In this document: positions 2,754 through 50,936 of the stretch, one piece after another | Numbering within the stretch: the stretch's first letter is position 1 | Layout: each line of letters begins with the position of its first letter | Source of the DNA: Kondoa subrosea | Lineage: Eukaryota | Length of the DNA stretch: 64,000 nucleotides | Assembly: GCA_039545335.1 (NCBI GenBank) | Contig: BCIN01000002.1 | Location: 1,625,118-1,689,117, forward strand | Direction: 5' to 3' | Translations under genes and position numbers: made by a program | The notes under the pieces: generated by a model | Databases searched by the model: none | What the model was told of the DNA's origin: nothing | Seen by the model: the letters and a program-made list of their open reading frames with translations, nothing else

Positions 2754-5453
2754 ATGGAAGCCCATGAATTCGAGCAACCTGTTCCGCAAACCGCGTCAGG
2801 AACTTTACTCAACAATGATTCGGAATCCTCTATTGATCGTTCTCGGAAATACGAAGAGGGTCCAGCTTTCTCCAAAAGAACTTTTCTTTATCAATGGCGA
2901 CCTTTCAGGGGCATGATCTCAGATGTGCGGAGGAGAGCTCCATATTATGCGAGCGATTGGACATTGGCATTCAAGCCAAATAACATCTATCGCGTATCTG
3001 CTGCTGCCGTACGAATGTACTTTGTCAAGTAAGCTCATCAGAGGATTCTTCCTTATTGAATGAAGCTGACCGTGCGTGTAGTCTGATGCCTGCATTGGCC
3101 TACACTGTCGATATGAACATCCGAACAGGCGGCTCATATGGTGTCAATGAGACGCTTCTAGCATCTGCTTTGGCAGCTTTGGTCTTCCCGATACTGGGTT
3201 TGTCACGAAACACTGGATTTATGGTGTTGGCTGGCTAATTGCTCTTGCTTAGGCGTACAGCCACTCACAATCGTTGGAGTTACTGGTCTGATTAACTTGT
3301 ATGTCTTGAATGTGTCATACTTTCAAGCCAAGCTGACTTCAGACCTTATACAGATTCAATGTGAGTTCAGCCTTGCCGAAATAATGCAAAGTTTGAAAAT
3401 GGCAAAAAGTACACAAATTACACCATCGTTGTCAAATATCACAACGTCAACTACTTGCAATTCCAGGCATGGGTTTACATGTACGTTCAGCAAGCTTTAT
3501 CTCAGATGCGCAAATCTGACACGATCGCTCAGATGGTCCGCTATCATGCATTGGGGACTATCAATATTCAATGTCATGGACTATACACGATTCATCACTG
3601 ATATGACAGCCGAATGTTTCGGTTTCTACGTATGATCCATTATTGATGGATAAGTGGAGGAGTTTTTCTAACTGGTATCTCCAGGTCGGCGTTATCTATA
3701 TAGAAAAAGGTATCGAATTACTTGTACACGAGTTCGATACATCCGGAAAAGCTGCTGGATGGCTTGCATGCTTGGTCGCTCTTGTGCTCGCATTCTCTAT
3801 GTTCTACATGGAACGAGCTGGTAAGTTTGGGAACAGTCTATTACGACGGACGAAGCTGACTTCATCCGTAGGCAAGGGAAAATGGGGACCAGCTTGGTTG
3901 AGACGCTTAGTCTGCGACTATGCGTTCATCTTGACCATCGTCTTCTGGGCCGGGTTTACTCATATGTGAGTCATGGAGTGTGATGGCTCTCACTGTGTGC
4001 TGATGTCCAGGGCAATTGAAGTCCCGGTAACATCAAGTCGTCTGGTCTCGAATATCTTGGTATCACAAAGGCATTCTCGCCTACTTTAGAGTAAGTCTTC
4101 TATCGAGATTCTCCCATCGTAGACTGAAGTATCGCCTTAGCCGAAACTGGGTCATCGATTTCTGGAATCTGGACGTCAAGTGGATCTTTGTCGCGATACC
4201 CTTCGGAGTTGTATGTCTCTATTGTGAACAAAAACAGGAATGTGCTGAACCCTCGTACAGCTCCTGACCATGCTCTTCTGGCTCGATCACAATGTTTCTG
4301 CTCTGATGGCTTCCGCTCGCAAGTTCCCTGTTAACCGTCCATCTGGAGCAAACTGGGACTTCTTCCTGCTGGGTTGCACCACTTTCGTTGCTGGTATTAT
4401 TGGCTTGCCAGGTCAGCAATTTATATATGGGAAGTTCGAAATAGTAGCTAACCAGTTTACAGCTCCTAACGGTCTTGTGCCGCAAGCTCCAGAACATACA
4501 GCTGCACTATCAGTAGAGAAGCAGGTAGATAAGGACGATGGCGGAGGAGATGGTGTACAAGTCATGAAGCGAACTCGAGTCATTGAACAGCGGGTCTCGC
4601 ATTTGGCCATCGGAGTGAGTCCATCCTCGCCTTTGAAAACGATTTGACTGACGAGCTTTGTAGCTTCTGACACTCGGCACCATGACTCGACCTCTTCTTG
4701 TAGCCCTACATACTTTACCGCTGGCGATCTTTGCTGGTGTGTTCATTATCGTTGGATGGAATTCGGTTGTCGACAACGCGTGCGTTCCTTTACAAGCGGT
4801 GATGAGTTGATACTCAGTTCTTCAATCAGAATCGTACACAATACTCTATATCTATTTAGACATCCAAAGATGGTCGAAAACGATCATCCGTTGAAATCCA
4901 TTAGAAGATCCAAGATAGCACTCTTTATTTCGATACAGTGGTTGGTCTTTGCCATCGCTGTCGCAATCAGTCAGATTATTGGTTCGTGCCGTCCACTATG
5001 TTTGCACCAGGCTAACTTCTCATCCTCACAGCTGGTATCGGATTGTGCGTATCTTTTTTCCGTGGATTAGAACTCAAACTGATCTTGCGCTATATTCAGC
5101 CCTGTGCCATAGTAAGCCTAACTCTCATTGTTTGATAGGAATCTTTTTAAGGAGGGTTTGCAGCTTAATTCTTATACCTGCTCGACAATGGTTCGGTCCT
5201 AGATGGTTCACCGACTACGAGCTTTCAGTACTAGACGCGCCTGTGGCGAACTCAGAAGCTGTTATTGCTTCCATCGGTGGTGATCTTCGTGAGCTCATCT
5301 TTTGGCTGGTTTGATTTTCGGAAGGCTGAAATCTATATGCTAGATCTCCTCACTGGCGAAAGACCTTCGCCCGAAGAAGAAGAGAAGTCAGCAAACAAAG
5401 CCGACAGCGGCGAAAAAGGATTGCGAAAGCGAAACAAGCAACCTTCTCAATAG
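2754..5453 (+). CDS. BOR1: HCO3-/borate anion exchanger (SLC4/BOR1 family), many introns
   Basis: DVRRRAPYYASDW, QPLTIVGVTG, LFWLDHNVSALM, APNGLVPQAPEH and VIEQRVSHL are SLC4/Bor1 motifs; multiple TM segments. Confidence 0.9.
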
Positions 5454-9794: not shown

Positions 9795-11366
9795 ATGAGT
9801 AGAGGCTCTGGCATCAAGATCCTGACTGGTTTGCTGTCGTGTTATAAGAGCAATAGCAATGCATGAGACTCCCTTGCAGGAAACAGTCATCCTACACTTG
9901 CTGCAGCTGTTGCTGAACGGTAAGCTTATCCCCGGAAACTGCCTTTTTTTTTTCTCGCTTACATTGTGCTGCTACAACTTAGATTGGGATTGCCTTTATG
10001 TCGTTGCACAGTCAAGAAATTCTCAGACAATGAGACATCCGTGTCAATCGGTGAATCCGTCCGCGAGGAAGATGTCTTTATCATACAAGTAAACCAACGT
10101 CTAGCGAGCGTATAGACTGCTCGCTGATGCTGTAAGAACAGACTGGCTTCAACCCAAATCCCTCAGTCACTTCTCAAGGATATTCGCGTCCACCTTCACC
10201 CACGCAACAAGCTCATTCACCAATCTCAGAAAAGCAGCCTTTCACCCCTCGTTATCAACCAGCAGCAGATCCGAATGATCTTCTTATGGAATTGTTGATC
10301 ATGATCTCGTAAGACTTCCTTCCTCTCTTTCAGTTCTACTTCAATTTGTCTCATATTACGAACAGAGCATGCAAAACTGCTTCAGCTAGAAGAATTACCG
10401 CTGTTCTGCCTTGTTTTCCTTATTCAAGAATGGACAGAAAAGATCGAGCTCGAGCACCTATCACAGCAAAATTAGTAGCCAACATGTTGCAAGTAGCAGG
10501 TTGTGATCGAGTCATTACACTTGATTTACATGCCAGTCAAATTCAAGGCTTCTTTTCCGTCCCAGTAGACAACCTTTGGTCGGAACCAATCATGTTGCAA
10601 TATATTAAACAAGAAGTGGAAGATTGGAAACATTGTATTATAGTCAGTCCAGATGCTGGTGGAGCGAAAAGGTGAGTCTGAGAACAATCGACCAAACCGA
10701 TGGCTTGTTGCTGAAGAAATCGGCAGAGCTACTACATTGGCTGATAGGCTGAACGTCGACTTCGCGCTCATCAACCGACAACGAAGGAAAGGCGACAGTC
10801 CAGACTCGCTAGGCAATATGGAGATCCTGGTTGGAAGCGTGCAAGGCAAAGTGAGCATCTCGGTGTTCTATATGCGCGCAACGCTAAAAGGTGAACTTAG
10901 GTCGCTATTCTTGTAGACGATATGTGCGATACTGGTGAAACTTTGGCTTTGGCTGTCAATACCTTGATGAAGGCGGGAGCAAGACGAGTGTTTGGATTAG
11001 TGTCTCATGGTGAGCGAGATTGATCATTTCCAATATAAGTGCTATCCATCTAACCTTGCGCACAGGTCTGCTATCTGGAGACGCTATCAAGATGATCTCT
11101 CATCTACCTATCGAGAAATTGGTTGTGCGTGATATTTCCTTGCGGCATGAAGGTTGGGTTTGACATTGATTGATACAGGTTACAAATTCTATCAACCAGC
11201 AAGAAACTTCGAAATATGCTTCAGGCAAGCTACAAACAATGGACATCTCACCCATGCTAGCAGAGAGTATTCGAAGGGTAGGCTTCTTCCTTCTGCTAGC
11301 CGGGCACTCGACTGATCGATGTAACAGACTCATAACGGTGAAAGCATGAATGCAATGTATGTATAG
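9795..11366 (+). CDS. PRS: Ribose-phosphate pyrophosphokinase family subunit
   Basis: [55 protein letters not shown] and LVDDMCDTG motifs. Confidence 0.92.
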
Positions 11367-11516: not shown

Positions 11517-12906
11517 ATGCCCGCATTACCTCAACCGCTGATGCGCCAGCTTTGGAAGCGAAATCTCGTGACGACATCTAGCAGACTTGCTCACGAGAAT
11601 CCCATTGTATGCCTTCATAAAAGGTGTATTTGCTCGTGACTGATAGTTCCAGAGCAGGGTCTACCTATGTCTGGTGCTCCTCCGACGATTCCTAGATCGC
11701 AGCGCGGCTTGCCAACCAAGCGTAAGATTCCAGGCGTCAAGAAGATTGTCATTTGTGCCAGTGGAAAGGGAGGAGTAGGCAAGAGTACAATCAGTGGTAT
11801 GCCGCAGCTGCTTCTAGAAGACGATCCTGGGCTCATCATGTTGAAAGTCAATCTGGCGTTGGCATTAGCTCAAGTCGCATCGACCTCAACAAGGCAAGCA
11901 CGCGTGGGACTGTTGGATCTAGATATATTCGGGCCTAGCAGTAAGCACAGATCGCTCTGTCTATCCTTACCTATGAAAGACATTTGTGTCCAGTACCGAA
12001 ACTCATGGGCTTGGACAAAGCTTTCGAGCCTGAATTAACTCCACGTGTGTGTAGCCTGTGCTACTCTACTGTGTGTAAATTATAGAGCTGATCCTACCTC
12101 GCAGAGAATCGCTTAGTTCCGTTCATCAATCATAACACGCCTTGCATGTCGATGGGATTCCTCTTACCGCCTTCAGCCAATTCGGATCAGCCGATCGTAT
12201 GGAGAGGTATGATGGTTATGAAAGGTTGCTATGTCTATTTATCAGTCGGCAACAAGCTGATGTGATAATCAGCTGTCCAACAATTACTTTTCGACGTGGA
12301 TTGGAAAGCTTCTTCGGGGTTTAATACTATGGAACCAGATTTAGACGTACTGGTCATCGACATGCCTCCGTCAGTGTTTCAAAGTACTATCTTTGTATAT
12401 GTGTACTAACTTCGAGCTCAGAGGCACTGGAGATGTACAGCTCAGCGTCGGCCAGCTAATACAAGCCGACGGTCAGTCTAGTGCTCTAGATTCTGGCTAC
12501 CCTGATATCTTTGTAGGAGCCGTGATCGTATCGACGCCTCAAGATGTAGCGCTTATTGATGTGCGAAAAGGAACGTCCATGTTCCGCAAAGTTGGCATTC
12601 CTGTGCGCCACATATTTCTCCCTCACAGTCGTATTATACTTATGCTGTGGACAGATACTGGGCGGCGTGCTCAACATGTCTCACTTTCGCTGTCCTTCGT
12701 GCTCGGAAGATCATCGCATTTTCGGCGACTCGTCGGCTTTCGACAACGCTATGTCTGATATGGGTCTAGATAAGCTGACCGACATTCCTCTTGAAATTGC
12801 GACCAGCAAGCAAGGCGACGCTGGAAGACCGATAGTTTTGACCGATGGCCACACCAGCAAGGCTTTTCTTTCGTTAGGGAAGAAAGTTTGGGAGCGAATA
12901 CGATAG
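11517..12906 (+). CDS. IND1: Mitochondrial Mrp/NBP35-family P-loop ATPase (complex I Fe-S assembly factor Ind1/NUBPL)
   Basis: Presequence-like N-terminus; [43 protein letters not shown] and NMS-x-F-x-CPSC. Confidence 0.9.
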
Positions 12907-28108: not shown

Positions 28109-28388
28109 ATGGGACTGATTGTACAGATTGCGAATGCATACTTCGCAGAATCCGTGCACTGGAGTGATCTAATACGAGATTGAAGTCACGAGTAGAGGAA
28201 AAGAGCCATCCGCGGTACAATCGTGCAAACGCAACTCAAAGAGATCAGGGCAAAGAATGTTAAGGAATGGAGCTATTCAGAAACTGTATTATAGCAGGAG
28301 GGTGCTTGAGTAGTCTGCTGCAGCATAGTGGCTGATAGAGACGAACCCGATCTCAGCCTTGTCCAATCAAAGGTTGTCGAAAACAACG

Positions 28389-30004
28389 ATGGTTTCCTCC
28401 AGCCTTACGCACAAGATGCTCAAGTCACGCACACAATTCACATTGTTGCCTACAACCCGGAGTTCAGCATATGGCGTTCCTCAAGGACCTCGCTTGAATT
28501 TGGGTGCTCGATGGGCTTCAATGCATGAAGAGGATCACGGAGAGCCTTTAGGCCACAAATTACGCCATGATACTCGCCTACCCTCTTTTTCTACTACCAA
28601 CACTGTCAAGCCAATCATTGGTTTGTTCAATAAAAGCCCTTTGAATGGTGAGCTTGAAATTAGTGCTCTACCTCTGTTCCTCCATCTTATGACTATATCT
28701 CAGCCAATGTTACTACTCCTGGTCGAAGGCTCTTCTCTACCACCTCTTCAACTGAAGCAGGATCAGCAACTTCCATGAATCCAAAATACGAACCTAAATC
28801 TCTAATGCAAGACAATGATCGCTATTCACCAGCTGTGCCCGATTACTCGAAATATACTTCAAAGAGATCAGAACAATCTGGTCGAAATTTTAGTTACTTT
28901 GTTATTGGTTCAATGGGTCTCTTGACTGCTGCTGGAACTAAATCCGTCGTTTCGGATTTCGTTGCCAATTTGTCTGCTTCGGCTGATGTATTGGCTTTGG
29001 CTAAAGTGGAAGTCGATTTGGCTTCTATTCCTGAAGGTATGTTTCTGATCAATATAGTCAGATTGCCGTATGAAGAAGCTGATTGGTTTGAATCATAGGT
29101 TCGTGAAGATACATGCTCTTTTGACTTATGTCTCAAATGACGCTGTAATCTCGTGAACAGGCAAAAACGCAATTATCAAATGGAGAGGAAAGCCAGTCTT
29201 TGTCCGCCACAGAACAGCAGACGATATCAAAGATGCCGAATCAGTTGACATCAAGGCTCTGAGAGATCCTCAAGCAGTGCGTTGATCCTCTGCTTCTTGA
29301 AAAATGATGTACTCAAGGTATTGGGAAACAGGACAAGGACCGAGTCAAGAAGCCTGAATGGTTGGTCATGTTGGGTAAGCAATCTGCCAGTACACGTCAA
29401 AGCCGTAGCTTATGGACTTTTGATCAGGCGTATGCACGCATTTGGGATGTCAGTAACATTTTCACCAAACGAAAGCCTTTCCTGATTTGGTTTCCTCTCA
29501 AGGTGTACCGATCGGTGAAGCTGGGTAAGTTTACGAGGAACACAAGTCGTTCTAGTGCTGATTTGCGTTCGGCGAACTTACAGTGATTATAAGTGAGCTT
29601 TGGTGAAAGGAGAATGTCAATTTCTGCTGACCAACTCGTGATTCTAGTGGATGGTTCTGGTACGCCTACGCACTTCATGTTACGCGATAGTCGCTAAACT
29701 CCTTCTGATCAGCCCTTGCCACGGCTCGCACTGTATGCTATGAAGTATCGCTTGGCAAATTTCTGAGTACTGAGAAACACTTCTACAGACGACAGCAGTG
29801 GAAGAATTCGCAAAGGTCCAGCTCGTGAGTTGCTGTTACTATATGACAACAGCGATGCTTGAACTGATTCAATCCCATCTTTAGCTTTGAACTTGGAAGT
29901 CCCTGGTTAGCTTTTCCTTGATCTTGCTCTTGAAAACTCTTCTGAGCTTGACGGACGTCTATTCAGAATACGATTTCCAAGATGACAAAATGATCATTGG
30001 TTAA
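28389..30004 (+). CDS. RIP1: Ubiquinol-cytochrome c reductase Rieske iron-sulfur subunit
   Basis: Spliced product has [52 protein letters not shown] and RIRKGPAPLNLEVP. Confidence 0.95.
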
Positions 30005-30517
30005 ACACTGTCATTTCATTTGCGGGCGCTTATGTAAGCAAAGTATTTCCTCATACTGAGCGTACAGTAGCAAGCAGTGGGATGAGTAGAGTAGAATGGG
30101 TAGTCCTTGTCTATTCATGCATTGCAAGATTCTTTTGTTTAGCACGCAATCTCAGATCTCTCAACACGAAATTGCGTCTCTTGTTCAGAACGACAGCTCA
30201 AGCTACTTCGACAGGTCAAATCGCCTTATTACAATGTACAGATGATGTTCCAAATCCTATCCAGCCTATATCTCATCGACCTCGCAGTGCGAGCGAGGCA
30301 GCAGGCGAAGCATTTGTCACGGTTCACTGTCTTTTAGAATGGCGATGCCTTATGGGACTTGTTGAGCGCTGCTCGTTAAGGACTCCGTACTCTCTTTGAA
30401 CAGCTTTACGTGGATGCACAGCGTTGGCTCAAAAGTCCTTCAAAATTACCCTTCCTCCCTTTCTTCACCACTAGAGCTTTCTATTTCACTCGTCGCTATT
30501 TCTTCTCTCAGACAATC

Positions 30518-42000: not shown

Positions 42001-42994
42001 GCATTTCAGCTTTTACGTTTTCCTTTGCATCCAAAACTTCTGAACGAGGAACTTTGACTACAGACTTGCGCTGTAAGAGTTGGCCGTGTCAGACTTCAAC
42101 CACGATATCTCGAAAAACATCACTTTACCTTGAAAGGCGAGTCGCGCAAAATAGCTCCCCGAGCACCCATAACTTGCTGATACCCACCAGACAGATGGAA
42201 ATGGAAGCCTTTGCCTTCAGGCATGCCGACCAGAACATTGGAAGCTCCAGCATTAGCAGTAGCAGCTTCATCAGAGTAAGCCTTTTGCGCATCATTGGGC
42301 TGAGGCATAGAAGGATCAGCTCGGTTGGGGAAATCGACTTTGCTGTGTTGGACCATGCACTGATGTTGAGACATGACTTCACTAGTGAGCTTTGTCATGC
42401 CTTCGGACAATTCCTGAACCGTTCGGGCAGTAACAGCTGCAGCAGCAGTAGAAGAAGCGGTTGACGTAGTGGTTGTACGAGTAGTGCCTTCAGTGTTGTT
42501 GGTCAATCTTTCCACAGAAGATTCGGTATTGGCAGTAATAGCGGAAGAAATCGATTTTCTGCTTCCAGCACCTCCAGCATCTCGTTCACCACGGACAGCA
42601 GCTTTGCTTGGATCCTCTAGATTGCTGTTGCTCTCATCTGGTTTGGGTGATTCAGTGGAGGGGAAAGGGACACCGCCAGCCTGAGTTTGCTCGGGAGGAG
42701 AGTTGCGAGCATTGTTGGTATCACCAGCTGCAGCAGAAGGAAAAGTGCTGTTGGTAGGCGATTCGATGACCGAAGTAGGGCGAGAATTGCTGCTATTCTC
42801 TTCAAAGCCTGCGTTGAATGCTTGACCGCCCTGCTGTGACGACGTTTGCCTCGGTATATCAACAGCTTGACTGTGTGTCACAGAGTGCTGCGGGATACAG
42901 AACGAAGCTACAAAGGAGAAGCAGGAGAGCACAACAGTTGGCAAAGAGACCAAGACAAAAAATGTGAACGCAGCTGACTTGTGTATATATCCAT
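39100..42994 (-). CDS. Multi-KH-domain RNA-binding protein with low-complexity G/Q/N/Y tail
   Basis: KH loops HNIIAGRKR, FISGKKNGK, HKRIIGVGGKNI and HRTLLGEK; both termini approximate. Confidence 0.8.
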
Positions 42995-43586
42995 GATCAA
43001 GGAATTTTGCGGTATTGGGTGTCCAGCGACTGGTAAAGCGCGAGAGGATGGTTGTTATCAAAAGTTCCCTTCTTATAAGACAGCCTGAGGGTATCGGAAA
43101 AGTCTGGTTTCCATGAATTCTAGGAATGAACAACTGGATTCGTGGAGTAGAGCTTCGGCTACTCACGAGCAAGTAGCACCGAGTATCACTGATGTCCCTG
43201 TCGACCGGTATATGGTAAAGAAAATGAACAGTTTGGGAGCAAGATAATCCAAAAGTCGAGGTCGGAGGTGGTCTGCGATGCAACGGGTAGTCCGCGAATC
43301 AGGTACTACTATTCAATGACACGCTATCTATGCGAGCCATTTGGTCATTGTAGTAGATTATACATCGAGCACAGCTTTCGCTAGATTGTAACCTGTTCGA
43401 TCAACTCTTCGGGTTGAAGGATGTATTAATACACACAGAGTGTGAAGCCATTGTCTGTGACTTCGGATCATCAGCCAAAGAAGAGTAGGGAGTTGACTAA
43501 ACTGACTTGTGACACGCGCCCTACTTAAATGAATCATTCGAAGCTGACTTCTCGTGATCTTCGCCCATGCGGCTGAATGGTGTCTT

Positions 43587-45022
43587 TCATAATCCAAAGC
43601 AAGCTGTGGTGTTTGCATACGCAGCATCAGCTACTTCTTCCAACGTGATGCCTTTCAAAGCCGAAACAGCCCAAGCGATTTGTCCAATCGTGCACCTGGA
43701 TTGAATGATCAGATGTCTGTTTAATCCTGATGAGGGCCGGAGCTCACGGCTCATTACGAGACTATCACATTCTTGAGCTGTAATACAACGTCCTGTCGGG
43801 CAGAGCTTACTTTCACCATAGCATCTGTCCGGTGTTTTTCCGCTTTCACGGCTTGTGGTGCATAGACTGCTTTTAGATGTGCAAATTTGGACAGATTGAG
43901 CAGTGGGTTCAATAACTTGTGACTGGCATGCGAAGGCCGAATCTAACAGAGCACTTAGGCCAGAGATATTACAGTCAGGTATTTTCTCACTTCGCACCAA
44001 GGCTGTTTTTCTCTCCTGTTAGTCTGGCATAGTATGGACGAGAGTGAAGAGCTCACGCAATCCGTCTCTAGCATAAGCTTATCTAGCGGTATTTCCTTAA
44101 CAGCTTGACAATTCTCTTCCGTTTTGAGTGAACAGCCGTTTACCTGATTCAGCTCAATCAGCCTGGGCAGATGGGAATCATCAAGTCCTTACTCCTATGT
44201 AGAAGCCAAGCTCAATGTACTCGAGCGCTTCTTCTAAAGTACCAGTATGGGAATGAACAACTCCACGCAATTTGCTCTGATGCTGTTTGATAATGGATAC
44301 CATATCTTTGTGAGCTTCCGATGTGCGCGAGTGCAAGAAGAGTGGGAGATCATGTTTTGTTGCCAATTCTAGATGAGGAGGAAATGCTTCTAATTGATCA
44401 GTTTTGTCCGACAGGAAGAGCCTATCGTCTAGGTATCTCTTGAGCGAGCTCTTAACGTTGCGAGTATCACTTACAGTCCAAACCACACTCGCCAACCGCA
44501 ACAATAGGTTCTCCCTTATGTTTCGCTAGCAGGTCATCCAGATCCTTGAAGAAAGCTGAGGAACCTCCAGGATGTGACTTGGCTTCTTTCGCTCGACCTG
44601 CGTCACTTAGTGCACCTTCACGAAACTGTAGCGGAACATACAAGGATGTAAACCAGCTGTTGTCTTTAGTTCTGTTTGCTTCTTAAGCTCGAGATGTAGA
44701 TCTGACGAGTCGGCTCACTGTGTTGATGAGCTAAATCTATGATCTCCAGTGACCCAGCCATGTTGTCACCAGTCAGGATCTGTTGAACTACATTGGCATC
44801 TTTTGCTCGCTGCAGCACGCTGCCAAGGTCGTCTGGATGAATTTGTTTGCTCCTAGGCTTTCCACGAAAGGCTTCACACTTCTCAGTGTCTGTGTCGCGC
44901 TTGACTTGAGAGCTACTGACTCGGATCTCCAAGATTTGACCCAATGCTGTCGCACAATTGAATCAGGGTATGCGAAAGTGATAGCGAGCGCCTTACTCTA
45001 TGAATCTAGGCAGCGAACTCAT
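43587..45022 (-). CDS. TATD: TatD-family DNase
   Basis: FIDIGSNLGDP, TAGLHP, VGECGLDYDR, LPLFLHSR, GVVHS.TG, LMLETDCPW and RNEPC. Confidence 0.92.
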
Positions 45023-46215
45023 ACTGCGTCTTGCTATAGCAGCCAGATTGAGTATCGACGTGCGAGCAGAACAGAGGGCTAATTTAGCTGACGAGAAGTT
45101 GAAACGCGCGATCAAATCGCTGGTTGAGCATTAACAATACTTGGCTTTGACAGCTCCTGTGCTTCGGCAGAATGTCACATAGGTGCTGCAAGGCCTCAGT
45201 TGAGCGATGCCTTGAGTGTGCACCTGATGCAGCCAAAACAGAGCGTCAAAAGCAGCAAAAAGAGCAAAAACGTAAAAAACGTTCAGTCTAGCCTTAACGG
45301 CGTTCAAAGATTCCCAAAAGTCCTAAGACGAATGGAGATATAGGATTTAATTTGCAATAAGCAATTCGAAGCGACTCGGCATAACCTCACTGTTAAAGAA
45401 GCGTAGGCATGAGCGACCAAATGTTGCTGCTAGGCAGGTCTTAGCTTACCTGTCTACTTCAAAACCCGAGCACAAAGATAAAAGTTTCGCTCTTTTTCGT
45501 TGACCTGTATATATGCTTCTAATGAAATTTGTAAAGCGTTTCCATCATGAATTTACGAAACTTGCCTGTTTGCCTTGACGCTCGATAACAGTGTTTCGAC
45601 TTGCTACACAATCCGACCTGACAGGTGATCTGATTGGGAATAGCTGTACGGAGAAGATTGAGTCATGCAAAGATGGGAAAGCGAGGACGTTCACCTCTCA
45701 TCGATTTAGGCATGCTCATCGAATTAGAGCTCCAAATGCGATTTGCAGAAGGTCACGAGTATTCCCTCGAACAGAAGTATAAGTAAGACTTCGAGTCTTT
45801 GTATGGAATGCATACTAGAAGAGAAAGTAATGCTGACAGGCAATTCCGTAATTGAGTGAGACGATGTACAATAATGGACGGAAAAGATAAAGCGGCAAGA
45901 ACACAGCAGTCAGTCAATGACTACATGTGCTGTGACACGGATCATCGCAATGCGTCTGCGGAGATGACGGGTACCCCCCAGCAAGAACACGGAAGCAGGG
46001 AAAAAAGCAAGAGACTGAAGCGTGTGGCTTTATACTGGGCGAATGACTTATACTGGTCGAAGAGCACGAGAAGGGAGAGAAGAGCACGGAAACTTAGAGC
46101 GATGCTTCATCGGCAGACATTGAAATACTTGCATCGCAAATGTGCTGTGTAGTCATATACGCCAGTTGATTATCGGCAGCTTGACTTTCTGGTCTGTGCT
46201 TGTTGAGGTTGCTCT

Positions 46216-47579
46216 TCAGCTTTTACCCAATGTTTCTACCTCTGTCAGCAAAATGAGCGCAATCCCAACATTGGAAAGACGATCTCACCGTCAAGCCAGT
46301 CTTCCATGATGATTTGTTCTTTGCGCAAAGTGATACCATTCCTTACGCAAGCAGCCTCAAGAGCAGCCTCGGGTGCATTTACAACCGGCACTCGATGAAT
46401 TTGTCGAAATCCAGTACGATCACCAATTCCAGTTGCGACAAGAGCTGAGTTTTGGATCATCTCCAATGAGCTGAGGTGTCCATTAGTAAGAGCATCAGCG
46501 ATGTGTGTAATGATACTGGGATGGCAGCGAAGACGCTTCAGAACTGGAAGAGATTGCCATGGCCAATTTTGCTCGTAATTCGAATATCCCGAATATCCGG
46601 TGGATTCGCAATAGAAGCTGAGCAGGGTGTTTCTAGTGATTCACATCAGCGACAAGTTGTGGGTAAAATAGAAATATCACTGACGGCAGGAGCTGCTGGT
46701 TTGAAGCAGCCTGCAGAACCCTAACACCCAGGCCCAAATGCTGCAACGCTGGAAAGCTAGACCAATCACATTGAAACTCGATGCCTTGATAACGCCAGCC
46801 CTTGGCTCGGAATCCAAAGCAAGTCAAAGCAGGAGTAAGGTATTGCAGCAGCCAGCCCAAATCAGAAGATAACAGGCAATAGTGTGCGTCCAGATACAAT
46901 TTGCGCAACGGTTGCAACTGGCTCTTCTCATAATCGCTCAAGGTATTCTCCGGATTGCTAGCGTCCCCTGATGATGGCAATCGCAAATGCAAAGTGTCCA
47001 GCTTGAGCGTTCTGAGGTAGAAGAAAGACGAGCGGAAATTGGCAGTAGTGCAGCTGAAGCCTTTCGTCCATACCCTTGACGTGCTCGCCGCTGGCTTGCA
47101 TACACCCAATGACTTCACCGAGCGCAACCTCCCCTCCGCATTTCCAAATACAACACCCGCAGACTCGTCATATCGAGCACTACTTCAAGAATCGAAGTAC
47201 GTGCCAACTTCATGAAAGAACCACTAGAATAGCTGGTCAAGCTGAACTGACGGACCAAGGTCGAAACACCATCAACAGCTGCAGACTGGAGAGCTTCGAC
47301 AATGTTGCCGCGCAAAGACTGCTGATACTGAAAGAGAGGGCATGAAAGCAGTAGGGCGCGCGCTGCGGGAACTGTTGATTTACAGATGAGGCAAAGGTCG
47401 GCGATTTCTGCTTGATACTTCTTGCAGTGCTCGGTATCGCGCATTTTAGGTTTTGGAATAGCTGCAAAGATGGCCATATGGACTTCCCTAGGCAGAGAAA
47501 GGAAATTGACAGCATGACTTTGCCCTTGATCCTCGTCTCGATTCACCGCTTTGGCTCGACGTGGCCTGAGTGTGCGCAT
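46216..47579 (-). CDS. F-box-like / LRR-like hypothetical protein
   Basis: N-terminal FLSLPREVHMAIF...LCLICK F-box-like motif followed by LxxLxL repeats; three putative introns. Confidence 0.55.
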
Positions 47580-47758
47580 GTTGCTGTCTTGCACTCCTGT
47601 CTCGCGTATTTGCAGAGCAACCTTGACAACGGTGTAATTTCGGGACAAGCTTGATTGAGCGAAACTGCGGTTAATTGGTTGGTTTGGAGTGGCCGACGTG
47701 CAAGCGGACTCGTTCTCGACTGTCCCATCAAGAGAACCACAGCGTCTACAGAGACTGG

Positions 47759-49173
47759 ATGCCTAGGCTGTTCCCCGAAATCTGGGAGCTGGTGTTCGAC
47801 GAATTAATCGCTCTGGACGAAGACTATGCGCAAAGTCATTTGCTGCCTCTATGTCAAGTCAGCAGTGTGTTCAATAATGTTGGTTAGCTGCCAAGCTTGA
47901 TCTGATGCGAAGTCCAGAGGAATTCTGCGGTCTCGCACAGCCTAGACTGTTTCAAGATATCTCACATACACAACTCACACATCCTCAGCTGGCTCTGACG
48001 CTGTTCAAGAAGCCAGAATTTGCTTCCCATGTACGAAGAGTCATTTGGTCGATATTGGCGTTCTCAGACGAATGTCTCTTCTCTCGTCTTTCCTTCTTTT
48101 CGCACAACGCGCCTGCGCTGGCAATCCTACGATTGTGTCACAACATCACCACACTGGGACTAGGTCGTAGCTTCGTTCATCGGCGGACCATCAAGTCTGA
48201 TGTGGAGGAGAAAGACGCAGCTACAGCATCTGAGCTTATGGAAACTGCATCTCTGCCGTTTCTTCCTGGTCTTCGTTCGCTTCAGATTAGCCTGTCTTCC
48301 TCTACTTTAGGCCGAAGATGTGTCAAACAGAATCATAATATCCTAATCTGGTTCTTGCAAAACACTCGCATCGAGGCTCTTTCTACCGGGTCACCAATCC
48401 GAAGCAGTGATCTTGACGGTCAACCCCTCCTTTCTTATAGTCAACCTTTATCCAGTCTGAAAACTCTGGAAATTCTTTACGGAAGCAACCCAATTCTAGT
48501 ATGGCAGCAAATGCTTCCCTACGTATCGCGACTTGTCATCAAAGGCTCCGCTTCCTCAAGAGTAATCTTCCGTACAAGCGCTCCATCTATGCTCAATCAG
48601 TCAAATCTTGTTCGAACGCTCGAAATTTACCGCTATACTCTTTCGAAGCCACCAACGAGAAGCTTCGATAGTATCTTTCCTGGATGTCGAGACTGGCGAC
48701 TAGAACTAGATGCTAGCTTTGCGGATCACAGTCACTTCGTGATGTGGAAGTTGCAAGATCATATTCAAGCTCTTTTCCCAACGAGCACATATGCGCCCAG
48801 CTTATCTTCGGTACGAATTACGCTCAATGATCCTTACCATCTTCTTTTGCAACACGCCGTATCTCTCCAGAAAGATCCATCTTCCTACTTCCAGTGCCTC
48901 TGCAATGATGAAATACTACCTGGTCTCAAAACCTTGACAATCCTGCATAAGCTCGAATCGGCTGAAAACACCGTTGAGGTTCTACAATTGGACAAGAAGG
49001 ATCCAGCTGAACACGTTCTTGATCGGTTTCTTCGTGAAGATCTAGCATACCTGGCTAATCACGCCACCAATGAACTGCAAATCAGTTTTATATACACTTG
49101 GGCCGATAGGAGGGAGTGGAGGTATGAAGTAAGAGGTACCAATACCGTTAGGAGAGAAATCTACTATGTATGA
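47759..49173 (+). CDS. F-box-like / LRR-like hypothetical protein
   Basis: MPRLFPEIWELVFDEL...LLPLCQVSSVFN...QPRLF F-box-like motif and LxxLxI repeats. Confidence 0.6.
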
Positions 49174-49235
49174 TGTGCGGAGACAAGCTCGCTTGCCGAG
49201 TGTTTCGAGCTAATGCTTTGACTTCAGGATTCTAC

Positions 49236-50730
49236 TCAAAAGAGAACCAGTGCAGGCATGATGGCAGATTTCTGGCCGCCTTCGCAAGCCTGCCTCAGTA
49301 ATTCCAGTCCTTCCGCAGGCTAAAACATCAGATCAGTATACTCAAATAGATCCTTCTAAGTACAACGATGATCTCTCAGCACGTATCTTCTCTGCTCGAA
49401 ATAATCAGACGTATGCTATATGCCTATCATACAAAGTCTGGGCTTGGTCCTTCTCTATCACTTGTGCATCTGTTCAAGGGACGATACCCCTTTGTAAAAG
49501 CGCTTTGATCAATTTCTGGTGCAACCCGAGCAGTATCTTCTACTTCTAGCGTTTTCATAGCATTGGTCAGAAGATGTAGATTAGCAGGAGCAGAGGTATG
49601 CCTGGCAAATCTTGCTCCTTGCAAGGGCGATTCCGGAGGTTGAGGCATACCACTGCGCACGAAGGCACTAGTAGACATTGTTGAGTCTTCTGGCGTTTCT
49701 AACACAGTGAGGTAAGATTGATGGCGAGCTGTGTATGGCGACTGGCAAAGCTGACTGAGGAGATTGTCGGGAGACGGTAAAGAAGGCCTCTCTAAGGCTT
49801 GATTTCGCCATACGCCGAGTACGAGCTCTTCTAGATATTGAGAATCTGCGAAAGTTTAACATGATTTAAAGTGTGTAGAAAAAGAACAGAACTCACTGAA
49901 ATCAATGTTTCGCTCTTCAACCTCGCCCATACCAGAGTCCGTGACCAGAGACAACCCGACAAGGCCACTTGCGTCCCCAATAAAATCAGATGAAGCATAA
50001 TGGGCTTTCAATTCTCCTCCGAATAGCTTCTGTTCGACCCAATCTCCTGAATGTCCTTTCAGTAGCCCATCCTGTTGATCATCTTTCTCTCGCTTATCTG
50101 CCCAACCTCTCATCTGTCTAGGGGTCATGTCCTTAGCCAATTTGAACCGGACGTCGTGCGCAATTTCATGCACATAGCACACAGTCAATAGTGCCAAAAG
50201 AGCCTTGATCTGTCCGTCCGAGAGGCTTTCTGTGTCTTGTAGCATAGCATAAAATTCTCTGGCCAGGTATAAGCGAGATGCCCGTGTTCGGCCTGTAGGA
50301 AAAGGTGGTTGTTGCCACACTTCGGAAGGTCTTTCCAGAAAGCCCCACTTCAGCTGATTGTTCGCTTCTTCAGATACAGTCCTTCCAAGCGTAAAGAAGA
50401 TCCATGGGTGCGTGGAAGACCGAAGATACTGAAAGGACAACCTAAGTCTGGACAATACTGGCTGAAAAGTGTGCTCACCTGAGAGACGAGCTGCTTGGCA
50501 ACTGCCAAATCTTTCGCCGGGCCTATAATCTGCCCAGTAGCTACCCTTGCCAAGATGTCTAATGGTCTATCGCTGAGCAAGTGTCGTCTCAGTTCCTCCA
50601 GCTTTTGCGCGATCTCTTCTCTTGGTCCTACGCTGATAGGTCCTAAAGTACCTCCGGGCCTCCAAATTAGCAGAGGATTGAGAGGATCTGCTGTCCCTGC
50701 CACTCTGGGTGTAATTTGAGTATGATCCAT
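49236..50730 (-). CDS. Hypothetical protein with HEXXH zincin-like motif
   Basis: VHEIAH followed by TP...GHSG..VE..LFGG; exons joined by GT-AG introns. Confidence 0.5.
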
Positions 50731-50936
50731 AGGCAACGAAATGTGTAACTTCAGAAGGTAAGAGGCAAGGTCGTGTTAGGAATGAGACTGTTCAAGTGTT
50801 GCTGTACTGTCAGAGTATAGCCCACGATAAAGTAGGTTAAGAGACTTCGTTGTGTCCAAACCAGCAGCTGTCTTATTACTTTGCTCTACAACGGCCGACG
50901 AGCTATACGTGACACTTATGCGAGCAGCAAGAGACT

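Follow-up and report, generated by a model that had tools for sequence, protein, structure and literature searches.

The 124 nt that interrupt the conserved IPEGKN motif in the RIP1 gene of Kondoa subrosea consist of two complete intron units of 62 nt each, which directly adjoin one another at an AG/GT junction (the slash marks a splice junction). The statistics of the local introns give good support to this twin-intron anatomy. The gap is probably removed mainly in two steps, with the junction acting as a zero-nucleotide exon at which a 5' splice site is regenerated after the first ligation. The gap was analysed within a window of 64,000 nt, the whole stretch of DNA under study, to which all positions refer.

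The RIP1 gene and its 124-nt gap

Sequence comparison identifies the gene that carries the gap as the one encoding the mitochondrial Rieske iron-sulfur protein (RIP1/UQCRFS1). Exon 2 encodes a UCR_TM domain (Pfam PF02921, E 1.5e-10), and the spliced model contains both the CTHLGC and the CPCHGS box and aligns end to end with named Rieske proteins. The nearest named matches of the protein are those of Rhodotorula and Sporobolomyces. The nearest relatives are found among JGI transcript-length contigs, whose proteins are 91-94% identical (280, 290, 272 and 285 matching residues in alignments over 300-309 positions).

The initial annotation proposed that the whole stretch from 29037 to 29160 has to be removed to restore the IPEGKN motif, and this is confirmed by homology. 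A protein-to-DNA spliced aligner, written for this analysis, was run on RIP1 with seven homologs. It reproduces the introns of the whole gene with four of the seven and those from 29037 onward with all seven. The gap itself is called as an exact phase 1 intron inside the Gly codon of IPEGKN in 7/7 cases. Furthermore, IPEGKN is ungapped in 124 of the 125 homologs fetched, the exception being P0062 with a 20-aa insertion three residues downstream, and the spliced RIP1 model shows no gap at this motif against any of the 15 homologs chosen for comparison. The coordinates of the gene and of the elements of the gap are collected in Table 1.

Table 1. Features of the RIP1 gene and of its twin intron, in window coordinates
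Feature	Position	Strand	Basis
RIP1 (Rieske iron-sulfur subunit of complex III) coding region, 12 exons, 309 aa	28389..30004	+	exon model
Exon 2, ending in ATT CCT GAA G (IPE and base 1 of the Gly codon)	28704..29036	+	exon model, spliced alignment
Intron unit 1, 62 nt, donor GTATGT, acceptor CATAG	29037..29098	+	sequence, matrix score
GCTGAT, consensus branch motif of unit 1, candidate branch A at 29082	29078..29083	+	sequence motif
AG/GT junction, zero-nucleotide exon and candidate recursive splice site	29098..29099	+	sequence
Intron unit 2, 62 nt, donor GTTCGT, acceptor GAACAG	29099..29160	+	sequence, matrix score
Exon 3, starting with GC AAA AAC (remaining Gly codon bases, then KN)	29161..29276	+	exon model, spliced alignment

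The division of the gap into two equal halves, which had likewise been proposed, is borne out by the letters themselves, as the gap splits at CATAG/GTTCGT into 62 and 62 nt. The reading frame does not survive partial processing. Removal of unit 1 alone yields GAA GGT TCG TGA, an immediate stop that was correctly read from the sequence beforehand, and a gene finder limited to introns of 90 nt likewise stops its RIP1 model there (29106). Read-through of unit 1 runs into a TAG at 29096-29098.

Local introns and the scores of the two halves

All local statistics are based on 53 introns curated by homology in five genes of the window: RIP1 (10 introns), PRPP synthetase (10), a NUBPL-like gene (8, through protein P0205), an amidase (8) and a BOR1-like anion transporter (17). 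The guide proteins disagree on PRPP synthetase intron 4, amidase intron 5 and NUBPL intron 1, for each of which one version was taken. Pfam searches with 118 small open frames of four further genes were too insensitive for exon mapping, and curation stayed at five genes. The curated introns measure 45-79 nt (mean 53.7, sd 5.6, median 53), and the ten RIP1 introns besides the gap measure 53-61 nt, in agreement with the earlier estimate that the gap is about twice the local intron size. Relative to the curated set, 124 nt lies at +12.5 sd and each 62-nt half at +1.5 sd. Long introns may nevertheless make up as much as about 6% of the introns in this genome (upper 95% bound from 0 of 53).

An ab initio gene finder, implemented as our own dynamic programme, predicts 119 introns in 32 models under an intron limit of 90 nt. 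The 87 predicted introns from the better models form a secondary set, whose upper length bound is circular. When introns of up to 300-400 nt were allowed, the gene finder chained neighbouring genes via spurious introns spread evenly over 94-298 nt, and it therefore cannot give the window's count of long introns. In a low-power test, donor-acceptor pairs counted by length exceeded shuffled sequence solely at 45-64 nt.

Intron crowding is extreme in RIP1 and in the BOR1-like gene. In RIP1, nine introns of 53-61 nt crowd the last ~260 coding bases (29277-29966), and the exons in this part measure 43, 21, 22, 9, 12, 20, 36 and 21 nt. The BOR1-like transporter (3029-5343) is broken up by 17 introns, each 49-56 nt long, and has exons as small as 7, 13 and 12 nt. 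Over the curated genes, 5 of 49 internal exons are 13 nt or shorter (7, 9, 12, 12 and 13 nt), the shortest being 7 nt.

Other parts of the window also deserve mention. Downstream of PRPP synthetase (9795-11360) and in the same orientation lies the NUBPL/ParA-like gene (about 11550-12891). The nearest named matches of PRPP synthetase come from Mixia, Cystobasidium and the rusts. P0205 (629 aa), a protein of a Cyphobasidiales metagenome-assembled genome, fuses PRPP synthetase with the NUBPL-like gene. This fusion is probably a gene-calling merge and suggests a gene order in common with that genome. Judged by these protein matches, the source would be a basidiomycete of the Pucciniomycotina, possibly a cystobasidiomycete. 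In the ~8 kb from 42700 to 50900, the gene finder with the 90-nt limit predicts no gene. The region holds a TatD-like frame (44184-44525, minus strand, Pfam) and a 431-aa open frame (47878-49170, plus strand), which may be genes of unusual structure, or the gene finder may be at fault.

The splice signals of the two halves were scored leave-one-out with weight matrices of our own, for which the 53 curated introns served as a small training set. Unit 1 has a donor at the 70th and an acceptor at the 47th percentile, a consensus branch motif and a total score at the 79th percentile. In unit 2, the donor GTTCGT lies at the 25th percentile, the acceptor GAACAG at the 98th and the total at the 49th. 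The initial annotation overstated the use of GTTCGT as a donor in several other introns, for this hexamer is found once among the 53 curated introns (4982-5031, in the BOR1-like gene) and once among the 87 predicted ones (62740-62679, minus strand). Curated donors have C at +4 in 10/53 and T at +3 in 5/53 cases, and 15 of the 53 curated introns end in TAG.

A CTRAY motif is present in 27 of the 53 curated introns. In these 27, the distance from donor to branch A has a median of 37 nt (interquartile range 36-39, maximum 46) and that from branch A to the intron end a median of 13 nt (quartiles 12-17). The first AG past branch A is the acceptor used in 19/27, and in 7 of the 8 others the skipped AG lies 8 nt or less from the A. 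Unit 2 contains no CTRAY and offers weaker branch candidates, in which the A stands at 29124, 29128, 29135, 29140 and 29147. This weak branch region is not unusual, since CTRAY is also missing in 26 of the 53 curated introns. Taken together, each unit is equipped with a separate donor, branch-like motif and acceptor, spaced as is normal for local introns, and the view of the gap as two complete, independent units around a zero-nucleotide exon holds.

How often such a pattern arises by chance was estimated by simulation, in which the true ends of the gap were kept and the interior was replaced by random intron-like sequence (30,000 runs). An AG/GT with both halves of 45-79 nt occurs in 6.1% of the simulations, and both halves score above the 5th percentile of real introns in 3.9%. 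Both observed half-scores are matched or exceeded in 0.03%, and in 0.3% in an earlier run with matrices from predicted introns. Abutting pairs defined by the matrices alone show no excess over the whole window (14 pairs at about 7 junctions, against a shuffle mean of 7.7 and a range of 1-25 in 20 shuffles). The abutting pattern is thus meaningful only because its outer ends match the removal demanded by homology.

Removal of the gap and origin of the twin

GCTGAT is the only consensus motif of the gap that is usable as a branch site. Its branch A lies 45 nt from the donor at 29037, just within the local maximum, and 16 nt before the end of CATAG, inside the local quartiles. The first AG after this A is that of CATAG (29097-29098), with none between. 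A second CTGAT, 9 nt from the donor, sits 112 nt from the end of the gap. Removal in one step would require 87-110 nt from donor to branch, compared to the local maximum of 46. Two-step removal is the best reading because the single consensus branch site stands at local geometry with respect to unit 1, and one-step removal calls for this far longer distance.

In the proposed first reaction, the strong donor GTATGT would pair with GCTGAT and its branch A, and CATAG, as the first AG past this motif, would be taken as the acceptor, joining exon 2 to position 29099. The new junction GAAG/GTTCGT would constitute a regenerated donor. Its sequence falls in the lower part of the donor distribution, as scored above, and is that used by the curated, homology-supported intron 4982-5031. 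A second reaction would then employ a weaker branch site within 29120-29150 together with the strong acceptor GAACAG, producing the IPE-G-KN junction. The reverse order, with unit 2 removed before unit 1, would equally yield the correct mRNA, and either order appears workable as no signal of one unit is interrupted by the other. Any use of the internal sites, like the order of the two reactions, is inferred here from the sequence.

The outer donor and the outer acceptor outscore both inner sites, which makes direct removal of all 124 nt in one step chemically possible. In that case, GTATGT at 29037 would be joined through a weak branch site at 29120-29150 to the acceptor at 29160, and the inner CATAG/GTTCGT would be a chance occurrence or a relic that is hardly or never used. 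Such a single long intron is a possible reading, though not a probable one. It agrees with the strength of the outer pair, the strongest of the four sites (70th and 98th percentile), with the share of random interiors that hold an AG/GT at suitable spacing or pass the lenient score cut, and with the chance-level number of matrix-defined abutting pairs in the window. The weak donor of unit 2 and its want of a consensus branch motif likewise count against two-step removal. In addition, Cryptococcus neoformans and Schizosaccharomyces pombe splice introns far longer than 124 nt (bioRxiv 10.1101/224170). However, the longest of the 53 curated introns measures 79 nt, and the distance from donor to branch would be about twice the largest local one. 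The spliceosome would also have to ignore GCTGAT, which stands at a normal distance from the donor and is followed by an AG 16 nt on. Moreover, the scores of both halves are reached by very few random interiors.

Two further explanations are far less probable. The gap could be a regulated unproductive-splicing switch, in which retention of one unit brings in a premature stop and thereby tunes the level of the Rieske protein. The stops that follow retention of unit 2 or of unit 1 would permit this, and the weak signals of unit 2 could make its removal rate-limiting. Such stops are unspecific, however, since nearly any retained short intron yields one; no conserved regulatory sequence is apparent, and 8/8 transcript-derived relatives (P0001, P0511-P0513, P0002, P0514, P0515 and P0003) encode the fully spliced IPEGKN. 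The switch on a respiratory subunit that had been suggested from the stop after partial splicing is therefore unsupported, as such a stop follows from any retained intron-like sequence, and this explanation is very unlikely. An artefact of the gene model or of the assembly, such as a mis-assembled duplication or a pseudogene, was considered on account of the exactly equal lengths of the halves, and no evidence speaks in its favour. The halves are unrelated, with a global alignment score of -3 compared to -9 to +7 for other intron pairs. Across 28300-30100, Logan contigs from two runs of a single sample show 0 differences, although they are possibly the source of the window itself and thus not independent, and splicing of the model gives a Rieske protein that is of full length and free of gaps. 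An artefact is accordingly even harder to credit than the switch. Two-step removal through the zero-nucleotide exon is preferred over these alternatives.

Concerning the origin of the twin, a tandem duplication of the halves was rejected on the basis of the alignment score of -3. A search of the 64-kb window with the 12 RIP1 intron units (blastn-short) for introner-like similarity returned just chance matches of 9-17 nt (best E 0.035). As the halves are related neither to each other nor to other introns of the window, neither tandem duplication nor a visible introner family accounts for them. The twin may have arisen either when a new intron entered at the edge of an existing one or when an intervening micro-exon was lost. 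A micro-exon that shrank to 0 nt is possible on the sequence, given that local exons are as short as 7 nt, and zero length would continue the local distribution of exon sizes, in which about a tenth of the internal exons (5 of 49) do not exceed 13 nt.

Conservation was followed in relatives as far as their sequences allow. A metagenome scan with 80 loci yielded no genomic DNA of a close relative, the best match being locus L001 with 70% identity. IPEGKN is uninterrupted in 80/80 of these loci, although one of the search patterns (EGKNAIIK) favours exactly that outcome. The annotated proteins of relatives contain no insertion at the IPE/G site. Elsewhere, P0005 (Rhodotorula pacifica) has a 22-aa insertion at CHGS/HYD, the place of the window intron 29733-29788, a long insertion in P0012 (Sporobolomyces phaffii) falls close to the position of intron 28648-28703, and P0062 (Peltigera) has 20 aa extra after EGKN. 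These insertions look like unspliced introns. Insertions at the places of window introns imply that some RIP1 intron positions may be common to Pucciniomycotina.

Partly spliced forms were also sought in the protein clusters of the closest relatives. The shorter member P0515 (231 aa), from the cluster of a 70%-identical relative, is N-terminally truncated and uninformative for the IPEGKN site. It is encoded on a 1081-nt contig, compared to a 997-nt contig for the full 303-aa form, and may be a partly processed or error-bearing transcript. Locus L001 is also 1081 nt long.

Implications and comparison with known systems

If two-step removal is correct, RIP1 offers a minimal example of recursive splicing, in which two introns of unit size with nothing between them are excised from a respiratory gene that is essential. 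Zero-length exons would then serve in more than the splicing of very long introns, and could also be a product of extreme crowding of introns that are recognised by intron definition. Where a genome's intron lengths are tightly distributed, any gap that is twice as long as the mode merits a check for an internal AG/GT. Gene finders with an intron-length limit break such genes, as our own gene finder did when it split RIP1 at this point.

A bolder and rather doubtful extension is that the spliceosome of this lineage is confined to introns of 45-79 nt with at most about 46 nt from donor to branch, and that dense packing now makes some introns touch. Were this so, zero-nucleotide exons would be the natural end of the micro-exon series (7, 9, 12, 12, 13 nt and down to 0), any gap twice as long as one unit would have to be spliced stepwise rather than optionally so, and more than one or two twins would be expected genome-wide. 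Such twins might arise by the insertion of new introns at AG/G or AG/GT borders of existing ones.

Recursive splicing has reportedly been found at ratchet points in Drosophila and at recursive splice sites in vertebrates (Duff 2015 and Sibley 2015, as cited in bioRxiv 10.1101/224170). These sites are said to share with RIP1 the AG/GT juxtaposition, through which the first ligation restores a 5' splice site. They reportedly divide introns that span tens of kilobases, and their proposed role is to make the splicing of long introns more accurate, whereas the whole RIP1 gap is just 124 nt, so that its subdivision cannot concern great length.

The closest counterpart is found in BOT1 (CNAG_07884) of C. 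neoformans, for which spliceosome profiling by Burke et al. revealed recursive splicing at a zero-nucleotide exon that divides 375 nt into 210 and 165 nt (bioRxiv 10.1101/224170). The BOT1 case was demonstrated by junctions, branches and 3' ends. BOT1 resembles RIP1 in being a protein-coding gene for a mitochondrial protein in a basidiomycete yeast. It differs in that its two parts are long for C. neoformans, whereas the RIP1 units are of ordinary minimal size (62 nt) and are known here from DNA.

Further fungal cases come from non-coding genes. A zero-length exon is described by Chen et al. for an intron of S. pombe SPNCRNA.445, the host of snoRNA61 (bioRxiv 10.1101/226894), and zero- or one-base exons are described for the snoRNA host polycistrons of Candida and Debaryomyces (PMC5033589). 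In these cases, as in RIP1, a fungal 3' splice site directly adjoins a 5' splice site, and their introns are removed stepwise. The hosts are non-coding and their introns bear snoRNAs, in contrast to the coding gene RIP1. Zero-length exons have already been shown in C. neoformans, S. pombe and the Candida relatives, and the RIP1 gap is not a new principle. A coding-gene case in which both units are of minimal intron size was not found in a limited search of full texts.

Stwintrons, known from filamentous ascomycetes, consist of two U2-type introns that are removed in consecutive reactions under intron definition (PMC6616335, PMC7138796). Like the RIP1 gap, they are complex intervening sequences of fungi composed of two introns. 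In a stwintron, however, the external intron has its donor, branch site or acceptor split by the internal one, which makes the order of removal obligatory, whereas no signal is interrupted in the RIP1 gap. The initial annotation was right to set the gap apart from the nested-donor stwintron, as both units have intact GT...AG ends and branch-like motifs of their own and neither lies inside a signal of the other. The stwintron authors place abutting U2 introns excised by recursive splicing in a separate class (PMC6616335). The RIP1 gap shares the corresponding features, namely an internal AG directly before a GT within a stretch that is missing from the homology-supported coding sequence, and an upstream segment with its own branch motif at a working distance from that AG.
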